A program made the translations under genes and the position numbers. A stretch of DNA of 63,449 nt, counting the filler, from Rhabdomonas costata (Eukaryota), in the NCBI GenBank assembly GCA_019059605.1. It is 32 parts of 32 records of this genome, joined end to end, with 100 filler letters (N's around TTAATTAATTAA, not from the genome) between each part and the next. Parts side by side here need not be neighbours in the genome. Positions count along the whole stretch, not along the records: positions 33,767 to 35,651 come from JAHMHO010007760.1; positions 35,752 to 37,635 come from JAHMHO010007761.1; 30 more parts are not named here. One strand, given 5' to 3'. Of this stretch, positions 5,859-37,635 are shown in pieces; the first letter of the stretch is position 1; each line of letters begins with the position of its first letter. The notes beneath the pieces were generated by a model. That model was not told the origin of the DNA. It ran no database searches and saw nothing but the letters and a program-made list of their open reading frames with translations.

Positions 5859-6492
5859 ACACAANNNNNNNNNNNNNNNNNNNNNNNNNNNNNNNNNNNN
5901 NNNNNNNNTTAATTAATTAANNNNNNNNNNNNNNNNNNNNNNNNNNNNNNNNNNNNNNNNNNNNGGTTTGTTTGAGAATGGGTTGGGAAGCGGCCTTAAG
6001 GCGAGACGCGTGTAAGTTGAAGGGTGGGGCGACTTTCAGGGGGCAGTGCACGCTACCGCAGTGCTCAAGTAGCATTTGTAGTCGTTGCTGGGAGATGTCC
6101 GTCCTCCCGCTTTGGACGGGCGGGTTGACCTTGGGTAAGGCGGCTGAACACTTCTAGGAGTCTGTAGGTATCTGATTAGAGCTGAGAGCGGGACGAAGTT
6201 TACTGGTAATCCCTTGCCTTTAATTTGTGCTTTTTTCATCTTAGGGTATGGGAAAACATTTCATCTGGTGGGTTGTGTGGCTCGTTGCAATGAATTCTCC
6301 GAGTTGGTTTGTGTCGCTACCATGGGTGCGTAATGGGAAAGAATGGATAACCCTCATTACAACGGTGTACGTTATCTCGTGGAACATTACATTGATACAG
6401 GGAGGTTTTATCTGCTCCCAGATACCTTTCAGTCTGGGCTGTAACATTGGATTTTGGCCCTTCTTTGTGCTATGCTTTCAGGCGTCCAAACG

Positions 6493-7719
6493 ATGATTGT
6501 GATCCGCTCTTTCTTGATTTTTGCGCTTTCGGTGTTTCTTTGTTTTCTGGCATGGTATGCTTTGCGAGCTGACTTGAAGCGTTCAAAGGTCACTTCCTCA
6601 TCACGGCCAGCCTCACCTACTTCCAGACGCAACGTTGCGGCGCCCCAGTCGGGCAAGAAGCCACCGCTAAAGCACTTATTCCGACAAAAACTATGGAACA
6701 AAACACAGTCCACACCCATTTCCCCATTCTCTGCATCTCAAAAATCGCTGGCGCACTCGGGTAAGTCTTCCCTCGGGCAAAAGCTGGCTCAAGTGCAACC
6801 TGGGCATCCCACCTCTGCAGCTTCTCCTCCACGCCCGCCGCCTTTTATTGACGAGGAGTTTCTCCGCCGTCCTCCCCTGAATTCCAGTGTTGTGTGGTGC
6901 TCGCCTCACCTGTACGGAAACATCGACTTTGAGCGTCTGGATGAATGGCAGATATACTATCAAGCGCTTGGGCTCCAGCAGGCCTTTGTATACGTCAGCG
7001 AAGTTACTCCGCCGGAGGTCCTTGCACATGTGAAGCGGCGGGGGCCGTTCTTTTCTGCGGTAGAATTCGACGGGAAAGGCGAATACTATGGCCAGAGGAA
7101 AGCAATATCCTTGTGTTACCAATTGGTCAGGGAGCGGAAGTTTGATTGGGCGTTTTTCGGCGACCTGGATGAGTTCTTGTGGTGGAAGGGACCGCACAGG
7201 ACGATTAGAGAATGGCTGGACACGTTTGGTGATGCGCGGTGCATCACACTTGGAAAGCGGTTTCACTCTCGGAGTGTAATCCATCCCCGTTACTGTGGAG
7301 TTCTGGCCTTTCCATTCACCCCACCGGTGCCGTATTGTTACATGAAAGGTGTTGGTGGACGCGTTGAGCTCTGTGACGATTGGGCAGGCAGGCGGAAGTA
7401 CGTGATTCGCCCGAACTTAGTTGGAGGTGCCCTCACCGTTCATCAGTGCCCAGGGCCACATGTTGTGGTTAAGACCTCTGAAGCGCATTTCAAGGAATAT
7501 CGGGGGCATCTGCCCCGTGGTCTTTTTCATGTTCCGTGCACTGACGTGCGATCTTTTCCCCAACCTGGTAACGATGCGTCCATACCGTGGTACCGGGAGT
7601 CGCATGGCACTGACGTCCTCCTACAAGACAGGGACCTTCCTGAGTTTATGAAGGTTCGGTTGCCGCGTAAGCAATGGGCAAGCTACAATGCTTGTAGATG
7701 CTCGCACAAGCTGCTGTAG
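6493..7719 (+). CDS. Intronless type II membrane glycosyltransferase, GT92/DUF23-like (GT-A fold)
   Basis: N-terminal TM anchor, Pro/Ser stem, EWQIYYQALG, YYGQRKAISLC, WAFFGDLDEFL (DxD motif), GRRKY; stop TAG. The start could also be ATG 6472. Confidence 0.8.
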   Translation: MIVIRSFLIFALSVFLCFLAWYALRADLKRSKVTSSSRPASPTSRRNVAAPQSGKKPPLKHLFRQKLWNKTQSTPISPFSASQKSLAHSGKSSLGQKLAQVQPGHPTSAASPPRPPPFIDEEFLRRPPLNSSVVWCSPHLYGNIDFERLDEWQIYYQALGLQQAFVYVSEVTPPEVLAHVKRRGPFFSAVEFDGKGEYYGQRKAISLCYQLVRERKFDWAFFGDLDEFLWWKGPHRTIREWLDTFGDARCITLGKRFHSRSVIHPRYCGVLAFPFTPPVPYCYMKGVGGRVELCDDWAGRRKYVIRPNLVGGALTVHQCPGPHVVVKTSEAHFKEYRGHLPRGLFHVPCTDVRSFPQPGNDASIPWYRESHGTDVLLQDRDLPEFMKVRLPRKQWASYNACRCSHKLL

Positions 7720-17879: not shown

Positions 17880-18624
17880 TATTATCTTTCATTCCTTTTA
17901 AACATTTTTTAACAGTCTCTTTAATTTTGTCTAACGTGCATTCATAAAATTCTCTGTTGTTTCTGTATCTATATTTATACAATAGTGATTTAACGCATAA
18001 TTCTAATTGTATTGGACAATCAACATTGATATAATATAACACATCTACATTATCAACGATAGAAGTATTATATGTTCCTGTCCTCTCATTCATTCCTTCA
18101 GATATTCCTATTTTTAATATTCCATCTTTGTTTGTTTTAATAACATAAAATAATCCTCCTTTTGGATATTTCTCTTTTTTTAAATTATTCTTTATTTTTT
18201 CATATTCTTTTTGGATATAATTTAACATATTTTGAACATTTTTTATTTTACTGTCATATTTTTTCTTTAATTCGTAATATCCATATTTACGAATTGAAGG
18301 AATAACATCCCGAGTTATCCATGATTTAAAATCTTTACATACTTTTAAACGACAAGATAACAATAAAGAATATAACCCAGATTCATTAATATACACTGAT
18401 TGAGGATGTTTATCAATATTGTATTTGATTTTTATATTTTTTAATTGAATTTTATCTATTTTATCAACAAGTCTAATTATGGCATCTTTTGGATTTTTAT
18501 ATTTTAACACTTTACATAATTCTTTTGCATTAAACCAGATTACTTGTTTGTTGGCAATTATGATATCAATTTTACCATTGTTGAATACAATAAAGCCATT
18601 TTTTGTGTCAATAATATTGTTCAT
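17880..18624 (-). CDS. Bro-N + T5orf172/MUG113 (GIY-YIG-like) domain protein, giant-virus type, 3'-truncated
   Basis: WFNAKELCKVLKYKNPKDAI...YINESGLYSLLL...FKSWIT.DVIPSIRKYGYY (Bro-N), then FYVIK...LKIGIS...R..TYNT...LE.CVK..L..YR...NREFY. The gene is very AT-rich and intronless. Confidence 0.9.
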
Positions 18625-18668
18625 TATATAATACGAACATATTATTTTTGATGAAATATATATGTCAA

Positions 18669-18719
18669 ATAGCTATATATAAAGGGTATGGATAAGCCAT
18701 ACCCTTTATATATAGCTAT
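18669..18719. repeat. Perfect 23-bp internal hairpin upstream of the Bro-N gene
   Basis: ATAGCTATATATAAAGGGTATGG-ATAAG-CCATACCCTTTATATATAGCTAT. It is internal to the contig and has imperfect complementary flanks. Confidence 0.9.
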
Positions 18720-18789
18720 AATATTTTTATCAAAAAACATTAGAATCATATCTTAGACATACAGTAGGGGTTTTACCAGTAATTGATAA

Positions 18790-19350
18790 ATTGAGTATAT
18801 TCAAAAAATAAATTCAAAAAAGCCGAAATGTAATTGGGTTCACATTACCTTTGGTAATTACTTATGTGTCTAATAATGATTCTAATTATATTTTTAATAT
18901 AATCATCTTTACTCATGTTTCTTATTATGTTTTTGAGTATATTTTCTAAATATACATTACTAATGTACCTATTGTTTTGGGTCAGCATGGCCTTTGGCCA
19001 TGCTCAAATCCGGTCTTTACTTATGTGTCTAATTATGATTTGAGTATAATTATCTTTACTCATGTTTCTGATTATATTTTTGAGTATATTCAATAAATAT
19101 ATTCAAAATTAATCTTACTAATGTACCTAAATATGTCTTTGGATTGCATGGCCAAAGGCCATGCTCATTTCCGGCTTTTATTTATGTGTATAATTATGAT
19201 TCAAGTATAGTCATTAAATATGTATATATTAGTCTTTACTTGTATTTCTGATTATATTTTTGAGTATATTTAATTAATAAATTCAAAAATAACTTTACCT
19301 AAATATGTTTTGGGGTGAGCATTGCCAAAGGCAATGCTCCAAATGGTCTT
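18790..19350. repeat. Array of about 3.5 degenerate direct repeats (140-173 bp), each with a palindrome richer in GC than its flanks
   Basis: Shared blocks TTATGTGT.TAAT.ATGATT, TCTTTACT and TTGAGTATATT; palindromes at 18844-18858, 18984-19004, 19146-19164, 19317-19339. Confidence 0.9.
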
Positions 19351-19513
19351 ACAAATGTATATTCATTAATTTATATATGTATTTGAGTACATATATAAAA
19401 AGCCTGATAATATATGTTTGTAGACAAAATTATTGTAACATTATATGTATGATATATTATATTTAAAAAGAATCAAGATGATATAAAGATTAAAACATTA
19501 TAAAAAAATAAAA

Positions 19514-19762
19514 ATGAACGAACTAACGAAATTTCTAAAACAATATGAATGTGAGAAGGAGGCAACACATACAATGATGAAATGTAAAAAATGGATAAGC
19601 CCCGGAAAATGGCAAATACCCAAAGAAAGACAAAATGAATTTTATACATTATATTCAAAAGAAAAAGAATATGCATTTATTGAACGACATGATAAAGATA
19701 CATCACCAATAATAATAGATATTGATATAAATCAAGAAGATGATATAAGGAGAACAACCACA
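19514..19762 (+). CDS. N-terminus of NCLDV D5-like primase (AEP/primase-polymerase domain), truncated by the contig end
   Basis: FL..Y...THT.M...PGKW.IP...EFY.LY...Y.F.ER...SPIIIDID (AEP motif I hhDhD); clearly homologous to the ORF starting at 36829. Confidence 0.75.
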
Positions 19763-33666: not shown

Positions 33667-35752
33667 NNNNNNNNNNNNNNNNNNNNNNNNNNNNNNNNNN
33701 NNNNNNNNNNTTAATTAATTAANNNNNNNNNNNNNNNNNNNNNNNNNNNNNNNNNNNNNNNNNNNNAGCCAGCCACTTCAAAAGTGTAGCGGTATTTGTC
33801 CCACTGACCATCTGAAATGGTGGAGCCAAGAAACTTACAGAGTCATCGCGTACAAATGACAAACGTGTGCGCAAAACTGATTCAAGAATGGCTAAATGGA
33901 TGTGTTGTGCAGAGTAATACAATTTGCAAGCAAACGTACAGGGGCTCAGTAAACTCAAAGCAGTATGTGGAACTACAGCAACCAGACGGTCCAACAAACC
34001 ATGAGTCCCGCCAACGTTTTAAGCTGTAATCCTAAAAAGGCCCTACGTAGTATCAAAGAGCCTGAGATACTGGAACTAGAGAAGCTATGCCAAGAGAACC
34101 CTAATCATGAACCAAAACGATCTAATTAGCCCAATTGAGTGTGATGCCCTGATGCTCAAAAAGTGTAAAGAGCTCGGAAAGTGCTTGAGAAAGTATCGCA
34201 GGTGTGCCAATCAGATGGCCGTAAGGGGAAAGAGAGCCCAGAGATAAGAAAGCTGGCCAAGTGGGTCACCTTGCTGCACCTTTGCGTGAAGGAATCACTC
34301 CAGACATTGTATACAAGGGGGTGTGTACAGTAACACCAGTCATCCAAATGGACTATAGCGGAGCGCGCTTGCAAATCTCTAAGAGAAACAAATCTCTGTG
34401 AAGTGAGTTGAAGAATTCTATCTAAACTAAGCAAAGACTCCCTGAGTTGTTTGAACGTCAATCGCGCACCACGTGCACTATCATATTAAAGACGTTGGTA
34501 TACAAACACCTACATAACATTGTGCCAGGATGGAGGTGAGTAACTGTGACTGTTCTACAAGCAAGGCTTTTCACACACACATCCTGAGCGTTTCGTCCAC
34601 ATAATTTAGTTTGTTTGTTAGGTAAACTATGTCAGCCTAACCACTTTACAACATCCAGATAAACCTGCAACGTTTTTGTCACAGATAGTGTCTTTTTACA
34701 ACAAATGAAGCAAACTCAGAGTGCAAGTCATAAGATAACTCAAGAATTACTGCACAGTGTGACTTCAGGATTGCCTAAACCACCGGAGACAACTTGACAG
34801 AAAGACCAAATTGAATACTTGACAAAATTTAGTAAAAGAGTTTACTCTTAGTTGACTCTTAGTTGACATAATACGACGGGGACAACAGCCAAATTGTTGC
34901 CTTATGTGATTAAATTTTAACAGTTAAAAGATGAATGAATGTTTAGAGATCTATTATCTATAGTGTACGCCGCAGGAGAATTGGCTTTTTTCAAGTGGTA
35001 TAATGTAGCTGGTCAATACGCAAAGAAGAAGATACTTTGCCATCAGACTTGGGATTATAATGTAGTGTCGAGGCTTGAAGACCCAAAATTTCCAATTCTA
35101 CCACAAGCATTTTTTCACGAGAGTTAAACTTCCACAAGGCACGATGTTTTAAAACGAGACGCTACAGCGGTATTTGTACGTTAGAAGCTATTAGATATAC
35201 AAAGTGATGTCCAAGAACACGCGGACGCCAAAAAGGCCATGAACAAAATAGCGTCGGATCGTGTTTTGCCGAGACCCACTTGGAAGTTTGAGAAGCCAAT
35301 ACACTCTTCCATGCAGTTGGATATGATAAGTTAAGAATATGCCACGTTTTCTGGAATCACAGATTTCTGAACTTGCAAGATACAGATGACTAGTTAAATG
35401 CGCCCAAAGGACATGCTTTTGGGTTCCAAGTGCAACTGCGGTCAGTTGTGCTTGCTCGATTGTTTGCCGTGTCATCCACACCTTCTTGGGCAGCCAATGT
35501 CCAAGCAAGAGCGGTAATGTTTACCTCAGCACATCACATGCTAATAAAATCAGCTGTATACAGATCACAATAAAATGCATTGGGAGATGTAAATGATATA
35601 GGCCCTATTCTCCAGCGAAAATTGGAGATATGCTAATGCACACCACACCCANNNNNNNNNNNNNNNNNNNNNNNNNNNNNNNNNNNNNNNNNNNNTTAAT
35701 TAATTAANNNNNNNNNNNNNNNNNNNNNNNNNNNNNNNNNNNNNNNNNNNNT

Positions 35753-36584
35753 TCATTTGAAAGAGTATATATAACACATCAAACATTTAAACCTATAGAC
35801 TTTATACTACAATATAAACAAAATGAAACCTATAACATTATACAAAACTATTCTAATATCAATGTTTTTAACGTGACAGAAAAAACCAATTTTGTAACCA
35901 ACACTACAATGACTACAATAACTGGAATGACACATTTTACAAACCTAATAAATCTTCCACAAGGACACACATTTGTTGTTAGCCCCACAAGCAGAAGTGG
36001 CACCAAAGGAGGATATATTGATCTACCAGTAAATTGTAACACAGACAAATATTATAATAATATATGAAATACAAACAAAAATATATTGATTATAAAAACC
36101 AACGTGGAGGTACTAATTTAATTACATATGATAATAAAGTATTTAATGGCTTTCTACCCTCATCATGGAATGTAATACAACCTTTACATAGACAACAAAT
36201 AGAAGAAAACAATGAAATTTTTGTTGAAATACATGAACACGGAATTCTTTTTTACATAGCAAAATATCTTATCAAAAACAGAACTGTTCCAATATATTTA
36301 ATGTATAGACAAGATGGAACCTACAATATTATTATGGATCTTACAGATAGTAAAGGTAACCCGTAAATTTAACAAATTGTGTAAATCCAACTTCATCCAA
36401 GCTGCTTTCAAGTAACACAGAATTTATAGATCATTATGCACATGATGATGGGTACTATGATGCAAAATCTGGTCATTATAAGGATCATAGCGTGGAAAAC
36501 CAAATCCGAGATCATCCTAGCAAAACATGTTTTCAGACTCATGGACTTTTTAGTCATGGAATATGGTACAGACTGACCCGTTAG
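35753..36584 (+). pseudogene. Frameshifted giant-virus-type gene carrying the YxxKYxKYKxKY...GG motif
   Basis: Restoring one base at 36059-36060 gives DKYYN[K]YMKYKQKYIDYKNQRGG. Restoring one base at about 36362 extends the frame by 73 codons to TAG 36582-36584. Confidence 0.75.
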
Positions 36585-36738
36585 TAAATCGTCAATACAA
36601 TTAGAATTTATATTTAGCATATATAAAAGTTTCGAAAGATCCATTATATTCTTATATACACCTACATATATATTTTGTGTTAGTAACTCTTGTAAATCAA
36701 TTTGTTGTTATCTACCACTTAAAATTTATTTTTATAAA

Positions 36739-36774
36739 TTTTTATCAGAAACATAACAATGTTTCTGATAAAAA
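36739..36774 (+). terminator. Mimivirus-type 3' hairpin (hairpin rule)
   Basis: Perfect 16-bp stem TTTTTATCAGAAACAT-AACA-ATGTTTCTGATAAAAA downstream of the + strand gene. Confidence 0.65.
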
Positions 36775-36779
36775 ATTGA
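36772..36779 (+). promoter_or_regulatory. Mimiviridae early promoter octamer AAAATTGA
   Basis: Exact motif about 50 nt upstream of the primase ATG at 36829. Confidence 0.7.
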
Positions 36780-36828
36780 ATTTTTAAAGTAATATATTTT
36801 AAATTATTCTTATTATTCTTATTATATT

Positions 36829-37635
36829 ATGACAAAAATGAATCCTCTACTTGGTTTTTTGTGTCATTATGAAAGTTCTGATTCTTTTAGTCATACTTTA
36901 ATGAAATGTAAATATTGGATTTCTCCTGGTAAATGGAGCATACCTCTTGACAAATTACATGATTTTTATTCTTTATATGCTATTTATAACAACAATTATT
37001 CATTTGTTGAACGACATTTGGATTACATTTCTCCTATTGTTATTGATCTTGATATTATTCAAGATGAAAATTATAGAAAAATCGATCATCTTTTTATTTC
37101 AAAAATTATTGACTTGTTTTATGGTGAAATTTTATAGTTCGTTACTTTAAATGAAACTAATAGTTTGTGCTATGTTTTACAAAGAACAAATATGCATATA
37201 ACTGAAAAAATAAATATAAAGATGGTATACATATTCATTTTCCATATATTGTAACTAAATTTAATTAATCAAATTCTGTTACGTAAAAATTTATTACATA
37301 AAATAGAAGGAATAAAAAATGAATATAATATAAGTAATATATAATTCTATAAGTAATATATAATTCAAGTAAGATTTGTAATGATATATTAAGTATAAGT
37401 GAACAAATTGAAAAAATGTATGATATATATAATAATATAGAAAACAAAAAACAAGATATATGTGATGATATAGAAAATAAAAACAAGATTTATATGGATG
37501 AAAACAAATTTAAAGAACTATTAGAATTATTGCCAGAAAAATATTATGATGATGAAATTTTGTGGTGGAAAATAGGAGCCATTTCTTATAATTTATCTGT
37601 AAATGATCACTTATATGATGCATATAAAAATTTTA
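36829..37635 (+). pseudogene. Disrupted NCLDV D5-like primase (AEP + PriCT-2)
   Basis: Motif I SPIVIDLD; in-frame TAG 37135-37137; motif II KDGIHIHFP (from 37218) in another frame; a further shift before QILLRKNLL; no recognisable motif III region; PriCT-2-like LLELLPEKYYDDEILWWKIG. Confidence 0.8.

Follow-up and report, generated by a model that had tools for sequence, protein, structure and literature searches.

A decayed Mimiviridae-like DNA segment, probably an endogenous viral element, in the Rhabdomonas costata assembly

One contig (C7761, positions 35752-37635) of the 63,449-nucleotide window analysed here, which was taken from the Rhabdomonas costata assembly GCA_019059605.1 (G000), consists of giant-virus-like DNA with broken genes. 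We consider it probable that this contig is a non-functional, eroding piece of a Mimiviridae-like (Imitervirales) genome, endogenous to the nuclear DNA of the assembly's main, euglenid-like organism. It is a dead scrap of 1.9 kb and brings no new mechanism. The viral type of its gene and its decay are direct observations, as are host repeats at or within related viral DNA elsewhere in the assembly; we infer from sequence that the contig itself resides in a nucleus, which host this would be, and in what order the lesions arose.

The window joins 32 unrelated contigs of about 1.88 kb each through N44-TTAATTAATTAA-N44 spacers, and therefore the neighbours of C7761 within it are uninformative on integration. 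Thirty of these contigs have 42-57% GC, and the remaining two have 24% (17880-19762, contig C7752, and 35752-37635). In agreement with the earlier note on this DNA, which described 35752-37635 as very AT-rich, the region is one entire contig of 1,884 bp and 24.5% GC with artificial N-spacers on either side. Reads were compared as Logan contigs of three runs of one sample (X1, X2 and X3). The features of C7761, and one paralog elsewhere in the window, are the following.

35752-37635, no strand: whole contig C7761, eroded giant-virus-like DNA, 24.5% GC
35753-36064, plus strand: gene 1, upstream open frame of 104 codons, start beyond the contig edge
36059-36061, plus strand: break 1, within the Y-x-x-K-Y-x-K-Y-K-x-K-Y (KY) motif, present in X1 and X3 read contigs
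36061-36366, plus strand: gene 1, middle frame, beginning YMKYKQKY...GG
36359-36361, plus strand: break 2, in the assembly only; 1-base length difference in all three runs
36360-36584, plus strand: gene 1, last frame, 74 codons and a stop
36736-36777, plus strand: hairpin, 16-bp perfect stem with a 4-nt loop
36772-36779, plus strand: AAAATTGA, early-promoter-like motif about 50 nt upstream of the primase ATG
36829-37137, plus strand: accessory AEP-D5-type primase, N-terminal part (AEP_C962R, motif I DLD), with a premature TAG
37138-37332, plus strand: continuation of the primase, frameshifted twice (near 37210 and 37265), motif II KDGIH in a shifted frame
37329-37366, plus strand: perfect 19-nt tandem duplication, about where the motif III region is missing
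37353-37635, plus strand: primase remnant running into the PriCT_2 domain, which continues, frameshifted again, in contig C72683
19514-19762, plus strand: same-clade primase paralog on the AT-rich contig C7752, truncated at codon 83 by the contig end

From its ATG at 36829 the primase matches the Pfam family AEP_C962R (E=1e-10), and Pfam finds PriCT_2 on the overlapping contig C72683; this is the N-terminal architecture of primase-helicases that combine PF23162 (AEP_C962R), PF08707 (PriCT_2) and PF08706 (D5_N). A D5-like primase-helicase counts among the hallmark genes of Nucleocytoviricota, as does the double-jelly-roll major capsid protein, which the assembly also encodes. Its frame is interrupted by the TAG at 37135-37137, and motif II (37218-37232) is read in another frame between the shifts near 37210 and 37265. 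Compared with P0005, an intact relative, the C7761 primase aligns over residues 23-182 and 308-347 only. Residues ~183-307 of P0005, with the DESVI..NG block of motif III, give nothing beyond a spurious overlap (E=0.049) in C7761, and the block is retained in the paralog L005. The TAG, the two frameshifts and the loss of motif III that the earlier note had reported are thereby borne out; the tandem duplication that it placed at 37330-37366 is real and perfect, but measures 19 nt (copies at 37329-37347 and 37348-37366) and not 18. Among the reads, X3 agrees with the assembly across the TAG, no substitution is listed for X1 at that codon, and the duplication is covered by one shallow X3 contig. 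We rejected an alternative genetic code as the cause of these interruptions, since they are not all of one kind and the viral genes nearby are readable with the standard code. A giant-virus, Mimiviridae-like origin and real decay, both of which had been proposed, are supported.

The nearest relatives of the primase are the metagenomic proteins P0003-P0007 (46-54% identity), and further relatives are encoded in 58 IMG/VR loci. We ran the phylogeny that had been suggested as a quick IQ-TREE analysis of 102 rows, in which the rows from this assembly fill less than half of the columns. The primase and two paralogs from its own assembly group with P0003-P0007 (support of 99 in the SH-like approximate likelihood-ratio test, SH-aLRT), within an enclosing clade (SH-aLRT 98) that also has two copies from one giant virus metagenome-assembled genome (GVMAG). 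This group is apart from the D5 proteins of the ~1.0-1.26-Mb IMG/VR genomes L048 and L056, putative megamimiviruses by their size. Because it is placed outside the core D5 clade, the C7761 primase is to be read, on its sequence, as an accessory AEP-D5 paralog and not as a core gene; compared with the D5-like primase-helicases that carry AEP_C962R, PriCT_2 and D5_N, it belongs to an accessory clade, is multi-copy and is broken. Five other pieces of it occur in the assembly, four of them damaged: L003 carries an internal deletion and a fusion to other sequence, L004 a frameshift and L005 stops, and in L006 homology ends after ~115 codons. The fifth, on C7752, is interrupted by the contig end. 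The broken primase used as a single query gave no match in IMG/VR, scans of IMG/VR and metagenomes with a narrow primase alignment returned distant relatives only (23-39% identity), and a fold search had no match at E<=0.001. The neighbours of the nearest IMG/VR copies resemble ordinary giant-virus accessory genes, as judged by eye without a family scan, and a small mobile element of transpoviron or Polinton type as the carrier of the primase is neither supported nor excluded.

Gene 1 is less well anchored. Searches of Pfam, and a word-index search among longer proteins, found no homologue; the middle frame had no usable match in the ESM Atlas, and the upstream frame had only weak matches of low recognition there. 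Because no homologue was found, the three frames are presumptively taken as one gene. The earlier note had recorded two single-base deletions in it, and these fared differently. The one near 36060 lies in sequence that X1 and X3 read contigs span without an indel, that is, in agreement with the assembly, and it is probably a frameshift, because the upstream frame ends with a Y at motif position -4. This Y occurs in 8 of the 12 other motif copies, several of which are near-identical paralogs; the K at -1 in the 12-copy set was dictated by the search pattern and so is not evidence. The second deletion, at about 36362, is missing from all three runs, whose contigs differ there (~36360) from the assembly by one base in length and lack the break. 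All 12 distinct matches to the KY motif come from this assembly, with none from IMG/VR or metagenome loci.

The erosion extends over the contig and beyond it. Its longest frame between stops has 114 aa; among 200 control fragments of equal length, drawn from those 32 of the 58 IMG/VR loci that have at most 30% GC, the smallest value was 162 aa, and long-frame coverage as low as that of C7761 was seen in one of the 200; these controls lean gene-rich, because they surround D5 genes. Upstream, C7761 shares an overlap of 127 nt (100%) with C34814, and downstream one of 77 nt (99%) with C72683. These two contigs are likewise AT-rich and fragmented, and the eroded contiguous sequence around C7761 reaches at least 3.3 kb.

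Two small signals remain between the genes, and calling both of them perfect, as had been done, overstated the case. The hairpin does have its perfect 16-bp stem (19 bp at 95%), with a stability z-score of -3.8 and one of 200 shuffles as stable, but a single AAAATTGA is what chance would give in C7761 (mean 0.64; 92 of 200 shuffles have one). Only its placement, adjoining the hairpin and some 50 nt ahead of the ATG, has weight. Across the assembly, AAAATTGA has 7 sites in AT-rich context and its reversed control has none. The hairpin may represent a 3' end signal of Mimiviridae type. The AAAATTGA promoter and 3' hairpins are listed as Mimiviridae features in the available part of PMC6163669, and the label Mimiviridae-like is reasonable for that reason. 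The narrower Klosneuvirinae label is unproven, because the capsid relatives are environmental, the fold searches are uninformative, and we found no paper on the KY motif as a klosneuvirus marker. The capsid in L014 has 53-71% identity to environmental capsids, and a capsid fold search with a poor model (predicted local distance difference test score, pLDDT, of 46) returned an uncultured phycodnavirus fragment first, followed by capsids of Harvfovirus, mimivirus and Terrestrivirus.

Host integration, as the earlier note proposed it, finds indirect support through other contigs (C2487 and C7272) but not on C7761 itself, and not by way of lesion density. Viral-host continuity is absent from C7761; it is present, in amplified short-read data, on C2487 for a primase remnant 80% identical to window positions 36810-37018. 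This remnant lies in an AT patch of ~530 bp (155-693 of C2487, locus L094), fused to the remnant of another AT-rich open reading frame (ORF). The patch is bounded on the left by a repeat that recurs on 39 other contigs (40 candidates scored) with 88-100% identity and that stops at the same place in other copies, which then diverge. On the right, within ~9 nt, begins a second repeat, with the same start point in two other GC-rich contigs, and beyond it lie ~2 kb of host-like DNA of 40-60% GC with a third repeat. The repeats that bound the remnant have many copies in the 45-55% GC sequence that dominates the assembly. Junctions coinciding with natural repeat ends would not be expected of random chimeras. 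The substitutions of the C2487 copy are present in X1 and X2 read contigs; a deletion differs between the data sets, measuring 22 nt in the assembly copy and only 4 in X1. The right repeat begins about where the promoter word would be. We also noted that the high-copy host repeat of C2487 abuts a ~120-bp AT patch with AAAATTGA at 465-590 of L140 (contig C24281); that patch is partly duplicated at the contig end and could be chance.

The reverse arrangement is seen on C7272 (L095), which carries a KY-motif gene and AAAATTGA. Inside this virus-like DNA sits a 339-bp island (1260-1598) of 46% GC resembling a miniature inverted-repeat transposable element (MITE), with imperfect terminal inverted repeats of ~28-35 bp and ATAT on either side. 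The end of the island (38 nt, 92%) recurs in the GC-rich, host-like contig C11991, and as an exact 21-mer it had 0 matches in IMG/VR. According to the part of PMC12455990 consulted, giant endogenous viral elements (GEVEs) commonly contain selfish elements derived from the host. Erosion of the GEVE type is present here: pseudogenes, duplications and host transposon invasion.

Intact and decayed viral DNA coexist in the assembly. Its capsid family has five matches on four contigs, three without stops, one with a single stop and one with 16; the double-jelly-roll capsid contigs are linked to C7761 only by belonging to the same assembly. All four Bro-N matches are stop-free, an NAD-dependent ligase has an open 500-codon frame, a core-looking gene bearing D5_N is open over its whole contig, and contigs as AT-rich as C7761 retain frames of 460-500 codons. 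We scored 28 virus-like contigs, all picked by searches and one of them host-like at 40% GC; long-frame coverage was at least 70% in 11, at most 35% in nine and between these values in eight. Several viral regions occur in two or three versions with 80-94% identity (L026/L031/L032 and L030/L033), and L030 is apparently frameshifted upstream of its KY-motif gene. Family-B polymerase gave 13 matches, all on loci of 46-56% GC and none AT-rich, and A32 ATPase gave none in this incomplete and fragmentary assembly. At the decayed end, 380-2026 of C6302 (L013) is a mosaic of remnants: a C-terminal piece of a capsid, a piece of a class V aminotransferase and a remnant of the KY motif, together with a short TTAGGG run and a trinucleotide run within an ORF. 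Two-unit TTAGGG runs occur in three host-like loci too, and the run of C6302 may be chance. Among the other virus-like contigs, L012 (contig C6785) has two tandem capsid-family genes, whose open frames measure 169 and at least 463 codons. C7752 (17880-19762, 24% GC) has a Bro-N and T5orf172 frame that is open for at least 248 codons, a hairpin of 23 bp without mismatch at 18669-18719, and three repeats of ~150-180 bp at 18866-19340 with a GC-rich palindrome in each.

The assembly is fragmented (97 Mb in 104,289 contigs, the longest among the first 17 being ~8 kb), and C7761 is partly covered in all three runs. Positions 37453-37515 are without cover in X1, X2 and X3, and uncovered stretches are uninformative. 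X2 and X3 have two substitutions in common on C7761 that are missing from X1 and from the assembly. Some indels are specific to a run, at 36248 and 37137 in X1 and at 37240 in X3. The earlier note had asked that the indels be verified in reads: the reads contain the TAG, the duplication and the break near 36060, but the break near 36360 is absent from them and others are run-specific. The list of lesions is thus part fixed and part library-specific, and amplification error and real polymorphism are indistinguishable here. GC-richer loose ends were seen before 36060 in X2 and before 37398 in X1, in one short contig each.

If C7761 is an endogenous element, viral DNA would have reached the nucleus and become integrated. 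Without selection, point stops, homopolymer slips, short-repeat deletions and the tandem duplication would then have accumulated, and AT-seeking host elements would have inserted into the viral DNA. The breaks common to the assembly and the runs (~36060 and the TAG) would be the older ones; those private to one data set (~36360 and 36248) may reflect either recent variation between cells or copies or errors of amplification. The promoter word and the hairpin could survive without selection, being small targets.

Several points weigh against nuclear integration. No host DNA was seen on C7761, C34814 or C72683. The C2487 junction is not displayed in the reads, as 30 loose letters of X1 match by eye and stop there, and the host side of the C7272 MITE is one 38-nt match at a contig start; MITEs also move from hosts into free giant viruses, namely pandoraviruses, according to the available part of PMC6004678. 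The three runs are not independent and are possibly the source of the assembly itself. The DNA was amplified (whole-genome amplification), as is concluded from fold-back, inverted contig ends and GT-rich primer-like tails, for example at the ends of L002, L005, L012 and L115; the tails are probably those of a GenomePlex-type kit. An indel rate for the suspected type of amplification is not given in the accessible part of PMC4527218. Much of the viral DNA is not decayed, given the 11 of 28 contigs with long-frame coverage of at least 70% and the capsid, NAD-ligase and D5 genes that are intact. In a set of 75 longer contigs chosen by their number (325 kb), not one was AT-rich or had a long AT-GC join, so viral DNA is a small share of the assembly. 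The sample is also mixed, because beside the main 18S rRNA, which is long, divergent and expanded, there is a second, plant-like 18S fragment with a fold-back end on L009 (contig C25815). By its signatures the main 18S is putatively euglenid, and the L009 fragment is putatively of plant or streptophyte type.

The strongest competitor, possible but in our judgement doubtful, is that C7761 is an accessory region that became pseudogenised naturally within a free or infecting Mimiviridae-like virus sampled with the cell, with a dispensable, repeatedly duplicated primase, and that C2487 is a separate small host capture or a chimera. The place of the primase outside the core D5 clade fits it (SH-aLRT 99, larger clade 98, in the quick tree), as do the lack of host DNA on C7761 and the presence in the assembly of an intact gene with D5_N and of matches without stops to capsid (three) and Bro-N (four). 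In the part of PMC5871332 available, Bodo saltans virus (BsV) has a GC content of 25.3% and a coding density of 85%, together with pseudogenes, ORFs disrupted by recombination and several primases. A free virus can therefore carry pseudogenes and ORF-disrupting rearrangements, core viral genes in this assembly are intact, and the density of lesions loses the force that the earlier note gave it as evidence of integration. Taken alone, however, such a virus leaves unexplained the primase remnant bounded by host repeats, the MITE-like insert and the decayed capsid mosaic. It also has to accommodate at least 3.3 kb of eroded contiguous sequence, and the lack of an AT-rich family-B polymerase (13 matches) and of any A32 ATPase, in an incomplete assembly. 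We accordingly rank the endogenous element ahead of a decayed region of a co-sampled virus.

It is improbable that the viral DNA, free or integrated, came from another organism or from environmental carry-over in the amplified sample. The second, putatively streptophyte-like 18S and the low-input, amplified library would allow it, but many copies of the repeats on either side of the C2487 remnant are present in the prevailing sequence of 45-55% GC, and C7761 is partly covered in every run. Least credible of all is that the genes are intact in nature and that every break is an amplification or assembly error: the break near 36360 is in no run's contigs, indels at 36248, 37137 (X1) and 37240 (X3) are run-specific and the C2487 copies differ (22 against 4 nt missing), yet read contigs contain the 36060 break as well as the TAG and the duplication, equally AT-rich contigs keep 460-500-codon frames, and the loss of ~70 codons around motif III together with four damaged sister pieces is hard to obtain from errors alone.

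Elsewhere in the window, an uninterrupted 424-codon frame with a glycosyltransferase family 92 domain lies at 6445-7716 (plus strand) on a contig of 52% GC. An Rfam scan of the window gave no match.

Endogenous giant viruses are already known in Euglena, and the find on C7761 is of a known kind. The GEVEs of Euglena gracilis, as described in the consulted part of PMC12455990, resemble it in being AT-rich giant-virus DNA (25-37% GC) within a ~51%-GC euglenid genome, with duplicated regions and transposon invasion. They differ in being Asfuvirales elements of 86-311 kb with coding density above 90%, mapped at chromosome level, and their markers are judged not pseudogenised, whereas the genes of C7761 are pseudogenised, its signals are Mimiviridae-like, and integration here would be deduced from contigs of 1-3 kb. 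BsV (Klosneuvirinae, Mimiviridae) is alike by description: the available part of PMC5871332 gives 25% GC against an euglenozoan host of ~50% GC, the AAAATTGA promoter, 3' hairpins, several primases, an NAD-dependent ligase and pseudogenes, and presents it as a free lytic virus of a kinetoplastid. It is named as the only virus known to infect Discoba in the consulted part of PMC12455990 (2025). The literature searched, mostly open-access, yielded only Asfuvirales GEVEs for the euglenids and no Imitervirales GEVE, and the string 'euglen' is absent from the main text of a 2026 catalogue (PMC13524828), whose supplementary GEVE tables lay outside the search.

We put forward more tentatively still a wider picture, in which an undescribed Mimiviridae-like virus would reside in the chromosomes of a heterotrophic euglenid-like organism in two layers, a largely intact and possibly latent copy (capsids, ligase and D5) and older relics riddled by host repeats. 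The multi-copy accessory primase might then mark repeated integrations, and the element could be an Imitervirales GEVE in Euglenida. Should integration be true, it would tie a Mimiviridae-like virus to a euglenid host and add a host record for a group mostly known from metagenomes, and the coexistence of intact and decayed copies would make reactivation of the virus testable.

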